Of a stretch of DNA of 64,000 bases, positions 17,459-23,222 are shown piece by piece. The DNA comes from Chloroflexota bacterium (GTDB lineage Bacteria; Chloroflexota; UBA11872; VXOZ01): contig OZ219802.1 in assembly GCA_964291655.2 (NCBI GenBank), forward strand, positions 2,144,001-2,208,000, in the 5' to 3' direction. The notes below the pieces were generated by a model. That model saw nothing but the letters and a program-made list of their open reading frames with translations, ran no database searches and was not told the DNA's origin. The position numbers and the translations under genes were made by a program. The first letter of the stretch is position 1, and every line of letters starts with the position of its first letter.

Positions 17459-18718
17459 GTGCAAAGACTCTGGTCCGAAATAGGCATCGTCCTGTCGGAA
17501 GAGGTGCGACGCGGTATTCGCCGCAAGCAGTACCTCATCATCACGTTTACGCCGGTGGTAATTGTGCTTGTGCTGGCGCTTGCGGCGCCGCTGGTGCGCG
17601 GTTTCTTTGGGAGTGACAGTGAGAGCGCCGACCGCGCCGGCAACGGACGCGTCGTTGCCGTCGTCAACCGTTCCCCAGACCTCACGTTCGCGAATTTGGA
17701 GTCCTCGGCAGTTTTAGCATTTGCCGACCGCCAAGCCGGTATTGACGCCTTGCAGGCGGGAGACGTGGACGACCTCTTCATAGTTCCTGAGGAATTCATC
17801 CAAACCGGCCGCATTGAGTGGCTGCACACGGATAAGGGCATTAGCAGCATCATCGCGGGTGATGACAGTGAAGACCGCATGCGCGATCTTGTACTTCAAG
17901 CCCTCACGTTTGCGGATCTTTCCGCAGAACAAATCGGGCGCCTGCGCAATCCCCTGGACCTCACACGTTACGAGGTGACACGCGATGGTGACGTGGCCGC
18001 GGCAGAGGAAGGGCAGATACTCACGTTTTTCACTGTGCCTTTCTTGTCGGCGTGGATCATGATCATGGTCATCTTCATGGTAAGCGGCACATTGTTGCAA
18101 AGTGTCTCCGAAGAGAAAGAGAATCGTGTCGTCGAAGTGCTTATCACGTCGGTTTCGCCTCTAGCGTTGATGTCCGGTAAGGTGCTCGGCCTCGGTGCGA
18201 CTGGCCTCCTGCAGGTAGGCATCTGGCTGGTCTCATTGGCGGTGCTGGGCCCGCGCATCGTGGGTGCTTTTCCGGAGATCGGCGACCTGGCCCTGGCGCC
18301 GGCGCTGGCAGTGGCAATCGTTGTTTTCTTTCTCGCCGGGTATTTCGTCTTTGCCGTAGTCATGACGGCAATCAGCGCTGCCACGGTCTCGGCGCGTGAG
18401 GCGTCCTCACTATCCACTATCATCCTCCTGCCTGCGTTGACACCGCTTGTCCTTGCCACACTTATTTCACTCGCTCCCAACGGCGCATTCGCACGGATAC
18501 TCACCTTCATCCCCTTCACTGCTCCCGCCACCATGATGATTAGGCTCGGCGTGACCGACGTTGCGCTCTGGGAGGTCGCGCTCAGTCTGGGTGTGACCGT
18601 TGCGAGCGGCCTCGCGCTCCTCTGGCTTTCGGCGCGGGTATTCCGAGCCGGCATCCTCATCTACGGGCAGCGGATGACTCTGCGACGGCTCTGGCTGGCG
18701 TTGCGCTACGCCAACTAG
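17459..18718 (+). CDS. Second ABC-2 exporter permease (paralog of 15673-16950)
   Basis: EEKENRVVEVLITSVSP...GKVLG, RVFRAGILIYGQR. Confidence 0.92.
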   Translation: MQRLWSEIGIVLSEEVRRGIRRKQYLIITFTPVVIVLVLALAAPLVRGFFGSDSESADRAGNGRVVAVVNRSPDLTFANLESSAVLAFADRQAGIDALQAGDVDDLFIVPEEFIQTGRIEWLHTDKGISSIIAGDDSEDRMRDLVLQALTFADLSAEQIGRLRNPLDLTRYEVTRDGDVAAAEEGQILTFFTVPFLSAWIMIMVIFMVSGTLLQSVSEEKENRVVEVLITSVSPLALMSGKVLGLGATGLLQVGIWLVSLAVLGPRIVGAFPEIGDLALAPALAVAIVVFFLAGYFVFAVVMTAISAATVSAREASSLSTIILLPALTPLVLATLISLAPNGAFARILTFIPFTAPATMMIRLGVTDVALWEVALSLGVTVASGLALLWLSARVFRAGILIYGQRMTLRRLWLALRYAN

Positions 18719-19238
18719 AAGAGTCTTGAATAGACTCGCGAAACCGCATCTAGTTCCGGCGTGAGAGTGAATCACCTTAGTTCAGCTACCCTTTGCCGAT
18801 TCGCCACAGCTTTACGTAGAGCCTCAAGGGATTTGGGACCGGGCAGACAAGAGAACCCTCGCGCCAGCCCTCGCCCAGGGAAAGAGAGCAGCTTGGCAAT
18901 TCCGGCCGGGGTCATCCTGAGCTCTTCTCCCAGGGCAATGCAAAGCATGCCCCCACAGTGAGCGAAGCTGCAACTCAACCTGAGGATTCGCCCAGGCATC
19001 CGGTAGCTGGCGCCGTGAGACCCGGGAAACCACTGTTGCTCCGTGGCGAGGAGGCAGCTTTATAGCTCGGGTTGGCAGGGCTGTGTCAATGTCTCGTGAG
19101 CCGCACCCGCAACAGCGCAACAAGGAGTGCTTTGGGAGCGTGGGCGGGGCTGCGATTGTAACGATTTGCCCTTGCTGCTGTCGAGAGTTCTGTGTGAACG
19201 GACAGGATATGCGCACACAGCGGGCTTCCATTGGGAGT

Positions 19239-19268
19239 TTGACACTTGGAGCGATAGTGTGGTTTACT
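19239..19268 (+). promoter_or_regulatory. Promoter-like repeat unit 1 (TTGACA-18 nt-TTTACT)
   Basis: ttgacacttggagcgatagtgtggtttact, homologous to the units at 19711 and 20097; no credible ORF downstream. Confidence 0.5.
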
Positions 19269-19459
19269 TGGTGCCGTAGCTGAAGACTGGAACCTCGCCG
19301 GTACGAAATGTGCTGCGACGAGGCAGTGGACGGCTCAATGAAATGAATGGGAGACAAGAGTGCGAGCGACCATCCTTGGTCGCCGTGGGAAAGTGGTTTA
19401 GGACTCCAGTTTGAGCGCAGTAGCGGTCGTAACGCTGCGTGTACGCCCTTTCACTGGAG

Positions 19460-19543
19460 GACGTCGGCACAGTGCCGCAAGATGTCGGCAAGGTGCCGAA
19501 AAACACCGGCAGGATGCCGTAAGATGCCGGCAGGACGCTAGAA
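19460..19543. repeat. Tandem array of 4 x 21-bp palindromic units
   Basis: gacgtcggcacagtgccgcaa / gatgtcggcaaggtgccgaaa / aacaccggcaggatgccgtaa / gatgccggcaggacgctagaa; core CGGCA-N3-TGCCG, degenerate in unit 4. Confidence 0.85.
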
Positions 19544-19710
19544 TACTGTTTCACGTTGGGCAGGCGGCGGCAGCCCAATTGCGGTCGGCGCGGCCAGGGG
19601 GCGAGCAACCTTCGCAGGCCGATTTGCTCGCATGAAAGTGCGTCTGAGAGACTGCGTTTTGGCTTGGCACAAGCGACGAATAACGCGTGCATGAAGAGTG
19701 CTGCGAGCGG

Positions 19711-19740
19711 TTGACACGTGAAACGGGACTGTGGTTAACT
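19711..19740 (+). promoter_or_regulatory. Promoter-like/parS-like repeat unit 2 (TTGACA-18 nt-TTAACT)
   Basis: gagcggTTGACAcgtgaaacgggactgtggTTAACT; contains CACGTGAAAC, the right arm of the parS consensus. Confidence 0.55.
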
Positions 19741-20096
19741 TGGAACCGAAAATTGGAGGCTGAGCTCCTGGGTCGGGTCGGCGTCGCAGGGTGGTACCTT
19801 GAGTTTGCGGACGAAGGCTGGTGAAACCTAAGGAGACGTTAGGGTAAGCGTACGGGGATAGTGCCCTAGTGGCTGCGGAGAGTTTGGGCAGTAAACATAC
19901 TGGGTGTCGCACTGGGTGGATTTGATCGCATTTCCTGCCGGCAGCGACACAGCAAGGCGCGGATTTGCGTGCATGTGCTCCGTCAGAACTAGCGCAGCGT
20001 TTCGTACGATATCCTCACAAAACTGCACCTTTGATACACATTGCCACCGCACGTAGACATGGGCAGAGCGGGCTCCAACCGGCGCACTAAGAGCGG

Positions 20097-20126
20097 TTGA
20101 CACGTGAAGCGACGGTATGGTTAACT
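20097..20126 (+). promoter_or_regulatory. Promoter-like/parS-like repeat unit 3 (TTGACA-18 nt-TTAACT)
   Basis: gagcggTTGACAcgtgaagcgacggtatggTTAACT; the first 18 nt are identical to unit 2. Confidence 0.55.
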
Positions 20127-20575
20127 AGGTACTCGCAACTTGATACTGAACCATGGCGGTACGGTCATTGCCGCAAGGTGACCAGGTAGCATAAGGAGAA
20201 GTGTACAGAGGCGTGCCCTTCTTCGACAGGGAACGTCAGACTGGTTTAATTTTTGCTTTTTGTGGTTGATGTGAGAACGGCGTTGGAGGGGCGGCACAGG
20301 TTACACTCGTGTAGCAAAGTCGCTTCCGCTCCTGAGTGCAGCGAAGGTCTTGGTGTATGCAGTCATTTCGAGACGGCTTTTCATGTGCCTCTTGTCGTCT
20401 CAAACGGTCTGCATGAGTTGCCAGGCTCGAGCACGTAGGGATTGCAGAGTGTTAGCGCCGTCGTAAGTGACAATGGGCCCACCGAGGGTCGGAACTGTTT
20501 GGTTTCTGCCGGGCACTGACGTAAACGCCTATCTCGGCAGTATCTTTGCTGTAGAGCGTGAGCCAAGGCTTGCGC

Positions 20576-21261
20576 TCATTTCATTTTACTCGACGATATC
20601 TGTGCATTTATGCCCGCCAGGTACGCGGAGCCGGGTCCGATCGGTTTCAATTCCAGGGGCACAGCGGAACCTCTTGACTTCTCCTTGGGGTCTAGCCCCG
20701 CACGAAGGGCGTGCTCTCGCCCAGGAGACTTCTGCATTACTCGTGCCGCGACGTACACATGACGGTCGGCCAACGCCTTAAGCTCCGCGTTCAACGCCGT
20801 GCAGTCCGCTTGCAGGTCTTTCCGTTCATGCTTCGATAGGCTCAGCGCGAACGGATTACAATCTCCCGGTTTTTGCCCTCGCAGTTTTAATGCACCAGCA
20901 CGCCGCCGACTACAAGATAGTGCACGTGACGCTCACTTGGAATAGGCGTCTTGTGCACTCCCCACGGCACCTACGTTGCAACGTGCCAGCCGGAAGAGGG
21001 CGGCACGCTATGGTACGGCGGGTGCGGCGTGTCCACAGACGGGATGTGTTCAATGCTCTAGATCGGCGCCGGTGTACCGGGAAGACTGCGGAGGATGCCG
21101 CTGCGCTAGGCCGCGCGGCCAATGAGCTAGAGCAAGAGAATCACGCCCGCGAAAGAGACTATCGCGTGTACGTGCTGCCGTACGGGGTTGCGCACGCGGT
21201 TGCGGGCTTGAGCTGCCTACTGCTCGCGGCGGTGTGTGCGTTGGGTGGGTTGGCCGCTCAC
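20576..21261 (-). pseudogene. DUF3105-family protein pseudogene
   Basis: Frame from GTG 21261 (GTGA overlap with the mnmG stop) reads TM segment AIVSFAGVILLL*LIG, then EHIP...PYHSVPPSSGWHVAT*VPWGVHKTPIPSERHVHYLVVGGVLVH*NC, matching the DUF3105 YnsxPPTSGxH...WGv...E..VHNLEHG....YNC pattern. Five TAG and one TAA in frame; REP inserted at ~20822-20855. Confidence 0.75.
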
Positions 21262-23222
21262 CGCGCCGTTGCCTTGGCCGCATGCCGGTGTACGTGCACC
21301 ATGAGCACGGCAATATCCGCCGGGGTGACTCCGGCAATGCGGGCGGCCTGGCCGATCGTGCGCGGCTGAAATTGCCCCAGTTTTTGTCGCGCTTCCACTC
21401 GCAAGGAGGGAAGCTGGTCGTAGTCGAAGTCCTGCGGCAGTGCCATCGCCTCCATGCGCGCCATCTTTTTCACCTGCGACTGCTGGCGCTCCACATAGCC
21501 CGCATAGCGCGCTTCAAGCTCGATTTGCGCAACGACCTCGGGATCGAGCTCGTCCGCCTGCTCGCCCATAAGCGCGGCAACGACTGCGTAGCGCCCGCGC
21601 GGGCGCTGCAGGAGGCTCAGCGCATTCGTCTGGCTACTGAGCGGCTGCACGCCGGCTCTTGCCAGTGCGCCATTTGTACTGAGCGATGGCGTAATCCAGT
21701 GGCTGCGGAGACGCTCCAGCGTGCGCCCAATCTGATCGCGCTTTGCCATGACACCCGCATAGCGCTCTCCGTCGATCAGGCCGACCTCATACCCAAGCGG
21801 CGTGAGGCGCAGGTCGGCGTTATCGTGGCGCAGCAGCAACCGGTACTCTGCGCGGGAGGTGAACAGGCGATATGGTTCTTGATGCTCCTGGCTTACGAGG
21901 TCATCCAGCATCACGCCGATGTATGCCTGGTCGCGCCCTAACACGACGGCCGGATTGCCCTGCACGCGCCGGGCGGCGTTGATGCCGGCGATGAGTCCCT
22001 GCGCCGCTGCTTCTTCGTAGCCGGAGGTGCCGTTGATCTGACCGGCAAAGAAGAGGCCGGAGACTGACTTGGCCTCCAAGGTGACGTTCGTCTGGTCCGT
22101 GACCACGTGATCGTACTCGACGGCGTAGCCGTGCCGCACAATCTCCGCGTTGCGCAGCGCCGGAACGGTGCGCAGCATCGCCGCCTGCACGTCTTCCGGC
22201 AAGCTGGTATTCGCTCCCTGCACATAGACCTCATGCGTGGTATATCCCTCCGGCTCGAGGAAGAGTTGGTGGGAGTCTTTGTGCGCAAACCGCACGATCT
22301 TGTCCTCGATAGAGGGACAATAGCGGGGTCCTGTTCCGCTGATGCTACCGTTGAACATGGGCGCCCGGTGGAGGTTGTCGCGAATGATGTCGTGCGTGGC
22401 AGGGTTGGTGTGCGTCAAGTAGCAGACCATCTGCCGCCGCCAGGGCGTATCGATCTGGAAGGGGTACACCGGGTCCGGCTCCTCCCGCCGGATTTCTTCT
22501 TCCCGTAGGGGCGTAAATGAGAATCGCAGCGGCTGTTGCGACCCGGGCTGCGGCGTGGTAAGCGCAAAGTTGATGCTCTCTGCGAGGACGCGCGGTGGGG
22601 TGCCGGTTTTCAGGCGGCGTAGTTGAAAGCCCAGCCCGCGCAATGCGTGTGAAAGACCCTGGGCAGGCGCTTCTCCAGCGCGTCCACCCTCAACACGCCT
22701 CTCGCCCGTAATCAGCATGCCTTGCAGGAAAGTGCCGGTAGTCAGAACGACAGTCGGCGCACGGAACGAGTGGCCGGCCTTGGTCTTTACGCCGGTGACG
22801 CGGCGGCGCTCCTCAGACGTATTGGTCGTGATGAGGTCTTCAACCAGGCCGTCGTGGATGGTCAAGTTTGCCTGGTTTTCCAGCACTTGGCGCATTGCTT
22901 GGGCGTAGAGGTGCTTGTCGCACTGGGCGCGCAGCGCCTGTACTGCGGGGCCCTTGCTGCTGTTGAGCAAGCGAATCTGGATAAAAGTACGGTCGGTGAT
23001 CTTGCCCATTTCGCCGCCAAGGGCGTCAATCTCTCGCACAAGATGCCCCTTGGCCGGTCCCCCAATCGAGGGATTGCAGGGCATGAAGGCGATGCGCTCG
23101 CGGTCGCCGGTGACGACCAATGTGCTGCATCCCATGCGCGCCGCCGCGAGCGCCGCCTCACAGCCGGCATGGCCGGCGCCAACGACTATTACGCCATAGT
23201 GCGCTGGTTGACATTGGTTCAT
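21258..23222 (-). CDS. mnmG: tRNA uridine-5-carboxymethylaminomethyl modification enzyme MnmG (GidA)
   Basis: VVGAGHAGCEAA, MPCNPSIGG.AKG, SKGPAV, KTGTPPR, GPRYCPSIEDK, AGQINGTSGYEEAAAQG. Confidence 0.98.
   Translation of the reverse strand: MNQCQPAHYGVIVVGAGHAGCEAALAAARMGCSTLVVTGDRERIAFMPCNPSIGGPAKGHLVREIDALGGEMGKITDRTFIQIRLLNSSKGPAVQALRAQCDKHLYAQAMRQVLENQANLTIHDGLVEDLITTNTSEERRRVTGVKTKAGHSFRAPTVVLTTGTFLQGMLITGERRVEGGRAGEAPAQGLSHALRGLGFQLRRLKTGTPPRVLAESINFALTTPQPGSQQPLRFSFTPLREEEIRREEPDPVYPFQIDTPWRRQMVCYLTHTNPATHDIIRDNLHRAPMFNGSISGTGPRYCPSIEDKIVRFAHKDSHQLFLEPEGYTTHEVYVQGANTSLPEDVQAAMLRTVPALRNAEIVRHGYAVEYDHVVTDQTNVTLEAKSVSGLFFAGQINGTSGYEEAAAQGLIAGINAARRVQGNPAVVLGRDQAYIGVMLDDLVSQEHQEPYRLFTSRAEYRLLLRHDNADLRLTPLGYEVGLIDGERYAGVMAKRDQIGRTLERLRSHWITPSLSTNGALARAGVQPLSSQTNALSLLQRPRGRYAVVAALMGEQADELDPEVVAQIELEARYAGYVERQQSQVKKMARMEAMALPQDFDYDQLPSLRVEARQKLGQFQPRTIGQAARIAGVTPADIAVLMVHVHRHAAKATAR

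Follow-up and report, generated by a model that had tools for sequence, protein, structure and literature searches.

The array lies in a window of 64,000 nucleotides of the source genome (G000; 3,473,974 bases, 3.47 Mb), where it occupies the gap that separates an ABC-2 permease gene from the 3′ end of mnmG. A 30-nt box of the form TTGACA-N16-GGTT(A/T)ACT occurs three times in this window, with starts at positions 19239, 19711, and 20097. All three copies are on the + strand and face the 3′ end of mnmG. The chance expectation is 0.01 matches in the window, and none of 100 shuffled sequences reached three matches. The pattern search confirmed the motif that had been reported at these positions in an initial annotation of the DNA, and the spacings of 472 and 386 bp given there are correct. 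No copy of the box beyond these three was found in the whole of G000, and the reversed pattern, used as a control, gave no match. The organisms belong to one genus of uncultured, sponge-associated Chloroflexota.

Each box heads one unit. Box 1 (19239..19268, + strand) has TTGACA and TTTACT as its two hexamers, separated by an 18-nt spacer, and TGTG lies one base before TTTACT. It is present in 8 of the 17 genomes of the genus, and TTTACT is kept in all eight copies. The body of unit 1 (19269..19705, + strand) varies in length among species, and the distance from box 1 to box 2 ranges from 243 to 514 bp. Only ~20 nt after the box are conserved, and three 21-nt tandem repeats appear at 19463–19529. 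Box 2 (19711..19740) and box 3 (20097..20126), both on the + strand, combine TTGACA and an 18-nt spacer with TTAACT as the second hexamer. The body of unit 2 (19741..20091, + strand) is alignable over its full length in eight species and contains a conserved AGGAG at ~19833; the distance from box 2 to box 3 is steady at 370–386 bp. Box 3 is followed by the conserved core of unit 3 (20127..20209, + strand; ~83 nt), which was aligned from ten species, is ~80% identical across them, and accounts for most of the selection found downstream of any box. The similarity said to continue downstream of the boxes holds for units 2 and 3 and is limited to a short stretch in unit 1, and the GGAG(A) motif reported further downstream is present in each unit. 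A BLAST search of G000 with the array returned chance-level matches of 15–19 nt only; the 17-mer match of unit 1 is located inside a 637-aa ORF.

Two hairpins are predicted in the unit 3 core on the + strand. Hairpin 1 (20152–20178) has a 10-pair stem and an invariant 7-nt loop, CGGTCAT (20162–20168). Hairpin 2 (20186–20206, within the feature 20186..20209) carries AAGGAGAA in its loop and lies inside a 24-nt block that is shared with the 3′UTR element described below. An imperfect stem and a T-rich tract can be seen next in the sequence (20210..20261, + strand) and form a possible 3′ end, limited to this lineage, for a ~130-nt candidate unit 3 RNA. G000, G003, and G008 are the only genomes with a stem and T-tract that resemble a terminator. 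The stem at 20210–20237 and the T-tract at 20245–20261 had been proposed as a terminator; they are alignable only in G003 and G008, the closest relatives of G000, and were not called by the terminator scan, and the proposal was not upheld.

The fold of the units was examined using the species alignments. Hairpin 1 of unit 3 is paired in 94% of cells, and the changes in its stem are one-sided only (U-G, U-A, C-G), with no significant covariation. Hairpins 1 and 2 together are paired in 95% of cells, compared with 24–50% when the partners are slid. No two-sided changes appear in unit 3, and 180 of 500 shuffles did as well. The alifold z value is −1.5 for the forward strand (6 of 100 shuffles as low) and +0.6 for the reverse complement, and the single-sequence fold of unit 3 is ordinary (z = −0.49). 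For unit 2, a structure with 15 pairs showing two-sided changes (0 of 500 shuffles) was judged to be over-fitting; the consensus energy equals that of column-shuffled alignments (z = 0.0, 42 of 100 shuffles as low). Covariation, which had been suggested as a check on the units, supports no fold in unit 3 or unit 2. The GCAA-capped hairpin proposed at 20163–20183 can form in G000. One of its seven pairs is broken in 5 of the 10 species, and it is paired in 82.9% of cells; the overlapping hairpin at 20152–20178 and the second hairpin at 20186–20206 are kept better.

The 17 species of the genus were compared together with 81 genomes from other families of the class, giving 98 genomes. The box is present in the permease–mnmG gap in 10 of the 17 species, with three boxes in eight, two in one, and one in one. 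Exact copies number 26, in 10 of the 98 genomes and all syntenic, with zero matches for the reversed-pattern control; the box is absent from all 81 genomes of the other families. Units 1 and 2 were lost or never present in G010 and G011. Unit 3 is the best-conserved unit and the sole one present in all ten array-bearing species. A covariance model of unit 3 scores 79–110 bits in these ten genomes and ≤27.8 bits elsewhere. The matches in another family (three g7 genomes, ≤27.8 bits) are antisense within a membrane-protein ORF and were set aside as chance. The remaining seven species have two minus-strand membrane-protein genes, a glycosyltransferase-like pair, in the gap in place of the array. 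G005 has no array, and further inserted genes are found there.

The 27 boxes of the ten species were aligned. TTGACAC and T(G/A)TGGTT(A/T)ACT are nearly invariant, and the ~12 nt in between are variable. Unlike the boxes, the spacer surrounding them has diverged beyond BLAST recognition across the same species, and outside the conserved blocks the sequence is unalignable between most species. Judged by this comparison, the boxes and the ~80 nt after box 3 are under selection. The units are repeated paralogues, in agreement with the repeat units of the initial annotation. A dispersed repeat of the REP, MITE, or IS-end type was rejected since the boxes and the unit 3 core occupy one locus per genome.

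The box is promoter-like. TTGACA, the −35 consensus, is present in 27 of 27 boxes. The spacer between the hexamers is 18 nt in every copy, within the 16–18 nt range of sigma-70-type promoters, and TGTG or TATG precedes the second hexamer by one base in every copy. The second hexamer is TT(A/T)ACT in 26 boxes and TTAATT in one. Position 2 of this hexamer is T and not A throughout, and the sigma-70-type pattern TAnnnT does not apply. The −10-like elements that can be discerned by eye upstream of the G000 tRNA genes start with TA, and a promoter scan that requires A at position 2 of the −10 element did not call the boxes. In their perfect TTGACA, their spacer length, and the T(G/A)TG before the second hexamer, the boxes look like promoters. 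Because one unusual box is common to all copies, a single factor probably activates the units together. We give about an even chance to the array being a set of separately promoted non-coding RNA genes, and candidate small regulatory RNA genes are the most likely identity of the units.

The same conservation can be read differently. The two near-invariant blocks of the box are about two helical turns apart with a variable center, an arrangement that suits a dimeric binder equally well as RNA polymerase. The boxes could then be DNA sites for a sequence-specific protein (a repressor, a nucleoid-organizing protein, or a recombinase), with the units serving as a repeated protein-binding module and the downstream conservation reflecting further contacts. 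This is consistent with the lack of the position-2 A that is seen in the ordinary promoters of G000, with a conservation of the boxes that is stricter than usual for ordinary promoters, and with the absence of a supported fold in the units. However, the first block is exactly the −35 consensus and is placed at a legal distance from a T..A.T hexamer that follows T(G/A)TG, a coincidence that is unlikely for an unrelated site. The halves of the box form neither a clean inverted nor a direct repeat. The strongest selection outside the boxes is on the downstream side only, over ~80 nt, as expected of a transcript. Two specific kinds of site were also considered. The CACGTGAAAC stretch in box 2 was read as a chromosome-partition site, and a partition-site-like half lies over boxes 2 and 3 in G000; neither is conserved in other species. 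A replication origin or a cluster of DnaA boxes was rejected: of 11 sites in the 64-kb window that nearly match the DnaA box of the E. coli type, only one falls inside the array, and dnaA is at C2:375,587, ~1.8 Mb away. Protein-binding sites without a promoter function are an unlikely explanation of the boxes, although a credible one.

The boxes may also be tandem promoters P1–P3 of nested long transcripts that run toward mnmG, either as a convergent antisense of mnmG or as a long leader of the conserved ORF at 20890–21369. The terminator scan and the alignments identified no terminator between the units and no conserved intrinsic terminator 3′ of any unit, and the shared orientation of the boxes toward the 3′ end of mnmG also favors this reading. 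The last box in G010 and G011 is ~220–400 bp from the mnmG stop codon, as calculated from the coordinates, and some species have conserved sequence between unit 3 and mnmG (query positions 2163–2533; ORF matches). The 20890–21369 block is missing, however, in several array-bearing species (G010, G011, G012, and G016 give only short matches that overlap mnmG), and it occurs in G005, one of the species with no array. Conservation falls sharply ~80 nt past box 3 and does not extend toward mnmG. Nested transcripts, in place of three separate small RNAs, are regarded as improbable.

The protein-coding capacity of the gap was analyzed next to its RNA content. No Pfam family was assigned to any of the eight ORFs of 72–177 aa within the gap, the alignment of G000 with G003 has no codon 3-periodicity and many 1-nt indels, and no tRNA match was found in the units. 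The initial annotation had listed no credible ORFs for this region, and this assessment is confirmed. A search of Rfam 15, also suggested there, matched no described family, with zero matches at E ≤ 10 in 18000–22000 and zero at the gathering score in the whole window. By these measures the units are non-coding. It was also suggested, as one option, that the units encode micropeptides. A unit would then be a short mRNA with a leader and a micropeptide or type I toxin-like small ORF, for which AAGGAG would be the ribosome-binding site and NTG the start codon. AAGGAGA(A/T) of unit 3 is followed by GTG in seven species, TTG in two, and ATG in one; all three triplets are usable starts, and an ORF of 17–55 aa comes next in all ten species. 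These peptides have only their first two residues, M-Y, in common, however, and 1-nt indels between clades cause the same conserved nucleotides to be read in different frames. The gap from GGAG to NTG in unit 3 is only 2 nt, which is very short for translation initiation. No start codon comes after the AGGAG of unit 2, and the homologous block in the 3′UTR element has CTG in place of the start codon. Short mRNAs are a very improbable identity for the units.

The array can scarcely be a functionless, decaying remnant of duplicated genes with their 3′UTRs or of a mobile element, with boxes conserved through close kinship only: the gap is a variable spot that holds two other genes in seven species and further inserted genes in G005, G010 and G011 have no units 1 and 2, and the unit 3 block is shared with the 3′UTR element of a multicopy gene family, but the boxes are near-invariant in 27 copies within a spacer that has diverged beyond BLAST detection, each genome has one locus with no dispersal, the two genes of the other species left no trace that tblastn (E ≤ 1) could find either in the array gaps or elsewhere in G000, and the ORFs scanned include no transposase or integrase. 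The alternative of decayed coding or IS sequence, which had been raised with the initial annotation, is not borne out by these searches.

The reading of the units as separately promoted RNA genes gains a candidate target for unit 3. The covariance model of unit 3 located a highly conserved element downstream of one gene of a secreted-protein family. The family is multicopy, with proteins of ~520 aa, and the 3′UTR element travels with it. A Protein Atlas search with the secreted protein gave no usable match. The element is located between the stop codon and a 16-pair terminator that was called on the strand of the ORF; a unit 3 RNA from the + strand would therefore be antisense to the mRNA. In the 24-nt block at 20186–20209, 22 of 24 nt are complementary to the UTR on the mRNA strand, and the 7-nt loop is matched as well; the match is computational. 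The element also has a hairpin with a CGGTCAT loop, and the order of the loop and block modules differs between unit 3 and the element. A local alignment of the two gives a score of 36, which none of 200 shuffles reached (maximum of 25). The match was found post hoc, and a plain genome BLAST with the array as query did not report it at E ≤ 5. Units 1 and 2 show no similarity to the element by local alignment and have no predicted partner.

The distribution of the element coincides with that of the array. A 22-mer of the element is identical in 16 copies, which come from exactly the ten array-bearing genomes, and it is absent from the other 88 genomes of the class at ≤2 mismatches. The co-occurrence in 10 of 17 species may represent a single inherited event; the mnmG tree needs two changes. 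Among 1360 seeded sites genome-wide, the element is the best non-self duplex partner of unit 3, at −39.2 kcal/mol compared with −35.1 kcal/mol for the next site, a lead of only ~4 kcal/mol. Cofolding of unit 3 with the element gains −17.3 kcal/mol, and none of 100 shuffles did as well. An unrestricted duplexfold of whole units with the UTR gave unrealistically long duplexes and was uninformative; the windowed scan and cofolding were used in its place. In a 14-nt block, every difference between unit 3 and the element is an A to G change in unit 3, with at least five independent events by hand count. Each of these events retains a G-U pair with the mRNA. Other explanations for the changes were considered: two of the events keep pairs of hairpin 2, and the other three would keep a pairing with the 16S rRNA tail. 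On this evidence unit 3 may be a trans-antisense RNA. Provided that the units are separately promoted non-coding RNA genes, the chance that the antisense link to the 3′UTR is functional is put at slightly less than even.

In the proposed mechanism, the genus has its own array of three paralogous transcription units that do not encode protein. A dedicated promoter of one type would stand in front of each unit; it combines the consensus −35 TTGACA and an 18-nt spacer with an atypical −10 hexamer, TT(A/T)ACT, which T(G/A)TG precedes by one base. Because position 2 of this hexamer is T where an A is otherwise essential, the shared factor would be a specialized sigma factor or an activator that makes up for the lack of the A. 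The products would be small or medium RNAs rather than proteins. Unit 3 would be the functional core, with its first ~80 nt folded into two hairpins whose loops display CGGUCAU and AAGGAGAA. We infer that this RNA would pair in trans with the 3′UTR in mRNAs of the ~520-aa secreted-protein family, where exact complements of both loops occur in addition to the 22 of 24 nt that match the 20186–20209 block. Two loop–loop contacts would extend into a duplex of 14 + 8 bp just upstream of the mRNA terminator, and this duplex would alter mRNA stability or 3′-end processing. The full combination, in which a dedicated promoter class with T at position 2 of the −10 element drives a three-gene sRNA array, unit 3 kisses the secreted-protein 3′UTR, and the array and UTR element arose together in replacing the glycosyltransferase-like gene pair, is tentative and, taken as a whole, rather unlikely. 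If it is correct, a single switch would let this genus of sponge-symbiont Chloroflexota control the 3′ ends of the mRNAs for its secreted proteins.

Multicopy sRNA families with tandem, individually promoted genes include LhrC1–4 of Listeria, PrrF1/PrrF2 of Pseudomonas, and OmrA/OmrB of enterobacteria. As in these families, paralogous non-coding units stand head to tail in one intergenic region, and each unit has its own copy of one putative promoter type, which implies common regulation. One copy is better conserved, and the short exposed sequence of a hairpin loop is the likely pairing surface. Unlike these families, the array has no conserved terminators and unequal box-to-box distances (243–514 and 370–386 bp), its −10 element is without the usual A at position 2, and it has no sequence or Rfam relationship to described families. 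Its host is an uncultured Chloroflexota. Full-text literature searches turned up no small RNA described for sponge-associated Chloroflexota. The array is an undescribed candidate of a known kind rather than a demonstrated system.

Extended −10 promoters of the T(G/A)TGn type are recognized by housekeeping sigma factors. The boxes resemble them in that, in 27 of 27 copies, TTGACA is followed by an 18-nt spacer and TGTG or TATG ends one base before the second hexamer, and differ from them in TT(A/T)ACT, where position 2 is T compared with A in the tRNA promoters of G000. The predicted pairing has parallels among the loop–loop (kissing) antisense systems CopA/CopT and RNAI/RNAII, since unit 3 and the 3′UTR element have complementary hairpin loops (CGGUCAU, AAGGAGA). 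Trans-encoded antisense RNAs such as IstR-1/tisB and OhsC/shoB have ~20 nt of full complementarity, and the 14 + 8 nt of near-perfect complementarity encoded at a distant locus is comparable. In contrast to these antisense systems, the predicted target of unit 3 is neither a ribosome-binding site nor a replication primer but a 3′UTR site just before the terminator, the predicted target genes encode secreted proteins of ~520 aa and not toxins, and the module order differs between unit 3 and the element. Protein-sponge RNAs of the CsrB/RsmZ type display GGA motifs in hairpin loops. Unit 3 likewise presents AAGGAGAA in a short hairpin loop, and a GGAG motif is found in every unit, but each unit has a single motif of this type. 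A CsrA sponge was rejected, since CsrA exceeds the Pfam cutoff in 0 of the 17 genomes of the genus; the control search detects CsrA in three reference genomes.

If transcribed, the array would constitute a regulatory RNA family confined to this lineage, and the 3′UTR of a secreted-protein family would be its clear candidate target; the secreted proteins of these symbionts probably mediate contact with the host. The boxes would then also provide a naturally occurring promoter that functions with a base other than the canonical A at position 2 of the −10 element. If the boxes are not promoters, they are still a well-defined 30-bp protein-binding site that is unique to one locus. The locus is a clean presence/absence polymorphism within the genus, with the array and the UTR element on one side and two membrane-protein genes on the other, which makes comparative transcriptomics straightforward. 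A metagenome scan with the box-plus-loop pattern gave two loci and no new diversity. One of them (L040) has no TTGACA and a different context and was discarded as a chance match. The other (L041) is near-identical to G008 over the boxes and the adjoining sequence shown.

The array occupies the gap (18719–21257) between the ABC-2 permease gene (17459–18718, + strand, Pfam) and the 3′ end of mnmG (21258–23222, − strand, Pfam). A pattern search of the window returned three + strand matches to TTGACA-N16-GGTT(A/T)ACT, at 19239, 19711, and 20097, in agreement with the promoter-like motif claimed in the initial annotation. The chance expectation in the window is 0.01, and three matches were obtained in none of 100 shuffles. 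These three sites, designated boxes 1–3, head units 1–3, respectively. No other copy of the motif is present in the 3,473,974-base assembly, and the reversed-pattern control gave zero. The three sites were independently clustered by a repeat finder as a 59-nt family with 61–100% identity. The Rfam scan proposed in the initial annotation was run and gave no match in the array gap at E ≤ 10; with the gathering score and a tRNA search, none was obtained in the whole window. The array is outside every described RNA family. It is interpreted, with about even confidence, as three separately promoted candidate noncoding RNA genes with one dedicated atypical promoter, unit 3 being the conserved core. 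The earlier proposal of tandem, individually promoted small RNAs is retained in part: the box repeat, the conservation, and the noncoding units argue for it, and the atypical −10 element and the lack of a conserved terminator or covariation argue against it.

Two other features were noted in the gap. A dispersed, REP-like repeat of 35–40 nt lies at 20817–20858 with an internal inverted repeat (arms 20821–20832 and 20844–20855); many copies with 86–100% identity occur in all 17 genomes of the genus, at least seven further ones in the source genome. A 159-aa ORF without a Pfam family (20890–21369, +) runs 111 nt into the mnmG 3′ end. The 370-nt block beneath it is 73–84% identical in G001, G003, G005, and G006 of the genus, with no indels relative to G003. 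Third codon positions of this frame carry no excess of mismatches, and the block is at most a candidate coding sequence, on either strand.

In each box a perfect −35 hexamer is followed by an 18-nt spacer, and TGTG or TATG stands one base before the second hexamer, the arrangement of an extended −10 form. The second hexamer is TT(A/T)ACT, with the T at position 2 strictly kept in every copy. TA-type −10 elements precede most tRNA genes of the source genome, as read by eye upstream of 53 tRNA and tmRNA genes, and the boxes were not called by a promoter scan demanding A at position 2. The strict retention of T suggests that the boxes would be read by a specialised sigma factor or as an activator-dependent promoter, although boxes that are DNA-binding sites and nothing more would fit it as well. 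A repeated DNA-binding module is nonetheless an unlikely identity for the array: the second hexamer without A at position 2 and the silent promoter scan are in its favor, but conservation outside the box is found on one side only, as expected for a transcript. Boxes 2 and 3 of the source genome include a partition-site-like half-site that is not kept in other species. A DnaA/origin function was also rejected, with 1 of the 11 near-DnaA-boxes of the window in the array and dnaA (C2:375,587) approximately 1.8 Mb distant. The cumulative GC skew of contig C2 falls from ∼0.12 to ∼1.1 Mb, is flat to ∼2.3 Mb, and rises thereafter, with no sharp turn near the window in spite of the presence of mnmG there.

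No conserved terminator was found behind any of the units. The second stem and T-tract previously put forward as a terminator (20210–20261) exist and are shared with G003 and G008 only, and the terminator scan made no call there. Nested long transcripts starting from three tandem promoters and extending into mnmG or a downstream ORF are a rather improbable alternative to the separately promoted RNA genes.

All 17 genomes of the genus have both the permease gene and mnmG, on one contig and 0.7–7.5 kb apart in 16 and on separate contigs in G014. The box was found in 10 of the 17, invariably within this gap and directed at mnmG; three boxes occur in eight genomes, two (one with a mismatch) in G010, and a single one in G011. 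Outside the gap there are three one-mismatch matches, one in G008 and two in G001, about what the reversed-pattern control yields. With the stricter exact pattern, 26 sites were found, spread over 10 of the 98 class genomes, with controls of zero, and none in the 81 genomes of five other families. In the seven boxless genomes (compared at loci L025, L027, L028, L030, L032, L036, and L037) the gap is filled by two minus-strand genes, for a 467–490-aa protein with a weak PMT_2 match (glycosyltransferase-like membrane protein) and a 429–479-aa protein with no family. With both proteins as queries, tblastn gave no hit to any of the ten array gaps (E ≤ 1) or to the source genome (E ≤ 1e-3), and therefore the locus has two alternative fillings. 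Within the genus the gap is thus a hot spot of replacement. Eight of the array-bearing genomes make up one clade of the mnmG tree, and the other two, G010 and G011, form a separate pair. This topology needs two changes, but its backbone is weakly resolved and the array may have arisen only once in the ten species. Parts of the stretch are present, as small shares, in DNA runs, some of them labelled sponge metagenomes.

Among the 27 boxes, TTGACAC and T(G/A)TGGTT(A/T)ACT are nearly invariant and the 12 nt in between vary. In unit 1, conservation reaches ∼20 nt beyond the box. The distance from box 1 to box 2 is 243–514 bp between species, explained in part by 21-nt tandem repeats; at 19463–19529 three such units lie head-to-tail, each of which can fold into a small CGGCA...TGCCG hairpin, and G008 has more copies. 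Unit 2 can be aligned over its full length in eight species, with box 2 and box 3 separated by 370–386 bp. Unit 3 is present in all ten array-bearing species with ∼80% identity across ∼80 nt past the box. Its conservation stops at GTGTACAG (20201–20208), beyond which only close relatives align. BLAST between more distant species recovers only the conserved unit blocks and the 370-nt block adjoining mnmG, which places both the boxes and the core of unit 3 under purifying selection and makes a functionless remnant very improbable.

RNAalifold of the ten unit 3 sequences gives two hairpins on the + strand, at 20152–20178 with the invariant loop CGGTCAT and at 20186–20206 with AAGGAGAA in the loop. 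For these hairpins 95% of cells pair, versus 24–50% with the partners slid. The proposed covariation check on aligned units showed no significant covariation: the changes in unit 3 are all one-sided, and 180 of 500 shuffles score equally well. The GCAA-capped hairpin described initially can form in the source genome and is less well kept than the RNAalifold pair (82.9% of cells pair, with one pair broken in 5 of 10 species). The consensus energy of unit 3 against column-shuffled alignments has z = −1.5 in the forward direction (6 of 100 as low) and +0.6 in the reverse, and the single-sequence fold is no better than shuffles (z = −0.49). A unit 2 fold with good pair counts has a consensus energy equal to the shuffled mean (z = 0.0) and was treated as unsupported.

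The absence of credible ORFs was confirmed. None of the eight ORFs of 72–177 aa inside the gap has a Pfam family. Between the source genome and G003, four minus-strand ORFs overlapping the array (three within it, one entering from upstream) contain several 1-nt indels, and their mismatches are not enriched at any codon position. In unit 3, AAGGAGA(A/T) is followed by the triplet GTG, TTG, and ATG in 7, 2, and 1 of 10 species, respectively. The ORFs that follow are 17–55 aa long and have only M-Y in common, the same conserved nucleotides fall in different frames between clades via 1-nt indels, and the GGAG to NTG gap is only 2 nt; unit 2 has no start codon behind AGGAG. The earlier suggestion of a GGAGA-led micropeptide is not upheld by these features; a type I toxin was rejected with it, and a leader plus micropeptide is scarcely to be expected. 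A CsrA sponge is excluded because CsrA is above cut-off in none of the 17 genus genomes.

A covariance model built from unit 3 scored 79–110 bits on the ten unit 3 copies, followed by weak full-length hits. Hits in three genomes of one family outside the genus lie antisense inside a membrane-protein ORF and were dismissed as chance. All other hits within the genus sit just downstream of genes for ∼520-aa proteins, which have a signal-peptide-like N-terminus (by-eye reading) and gave no Pfam family and no Atlas hit. In the source genome this 3′UTR element lies outside the window at C2:1156066–1156230 (L130:566–730), behind the ∼520-aa secreted-protein gene; a diverged second copy, also outside the window, is behind a 251-aa protein gene (C2:1819842–1819957). 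In unit 3 orientation the element contains the 22-mer GTAGCATAAGGAGACTGTACAG and, 14–17 nt beyond, the hairpin AGCG(T/C)G-CGGTCAT-C(A/G)CGCT, whose loop is that of the first unit 3 hairpin and is kept in 15 of 16 copies, with two-sided stem changes in 3 copies. On the opposite strand, that of the protein gene, it ends in the 16-pair terminator of that gene. The element is ∼160 nt long and 79–93% identical between species; the full-length proteins are mostly 39–60% identical. The same 22-mer is found in 16 copies, which come from the ten array-bearing genomes and no others; the remaining 88 class genomes lack it even at ≤2 mismatches. Full-length protein relatives are limited to array-bearing genomes, and the ∼190-aa C-terminal domain occurs in all 17. 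The shared distribution of array and element may reflect a single inherited event. The element could also yield a 3′UTR-derived small RNA with an anti-Shine-Dalgarno-like CUCCUUA loop. Additional inserted genes bearing the C-terminal domain are present in the permease/mnmG gap of G005.

A unit 3 RNA from the + strand would be antisense to the mRNA 3′UTR because the element is on the strand opposite the ORF. If the units are noncoding RNA genes, a trans-antisense action of unit 3 on secreted-protein 3′UTRs is about as likely as not. The two RNAs would meet by two loop–loop contacts and then form a 14 + 8 bp duplex. On this reading the array would work like known families of tandem, multicopy small RNAs and like kissing-loop antisense systems. 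The parts of the full-text literature covered on Chloroflexota and sponge small RNAs and on Chloroflexi sRNAs and transcription start sites contained nothing relevant. The array is a clearly bounded candidate, and its putative target can be tested.

The link between unit 3 and the element was found post hoc, and plain BLAST of the array against its own genome did not list the match at E ≤ 5. The 24-nt alignment has a single gap and a single mismatch and scores 36, a value reached by none of 200 shuffles (maximum 25); local alignment of units 1 and 2 and the flanks with the element gave no match. Among 1360 seeded genome sites, the element is the top non-self duplex partner of the 30-nt unit 3 segment, at −39.2 versus −35.1 kcal/mol for the next. 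Cofolding with the element gains 17.3 kcal/mol for unit 3, matched by none of 100 shuffles, and 5.8 and 8.7 kcal/mol for units 1 and 2, respectively. In the 14-nt block, all unit 3 differences from the invariant element are A to G, in at least five independent events (manual count), and each would keep a G–U pair with the mRNA. Two of the five changes also preserve the hairpin of unit 3 itself. The 16S rRNA tail ends in CCTCCTTTCT, and pairing with it would likewise be maintained by the remaining three changes.
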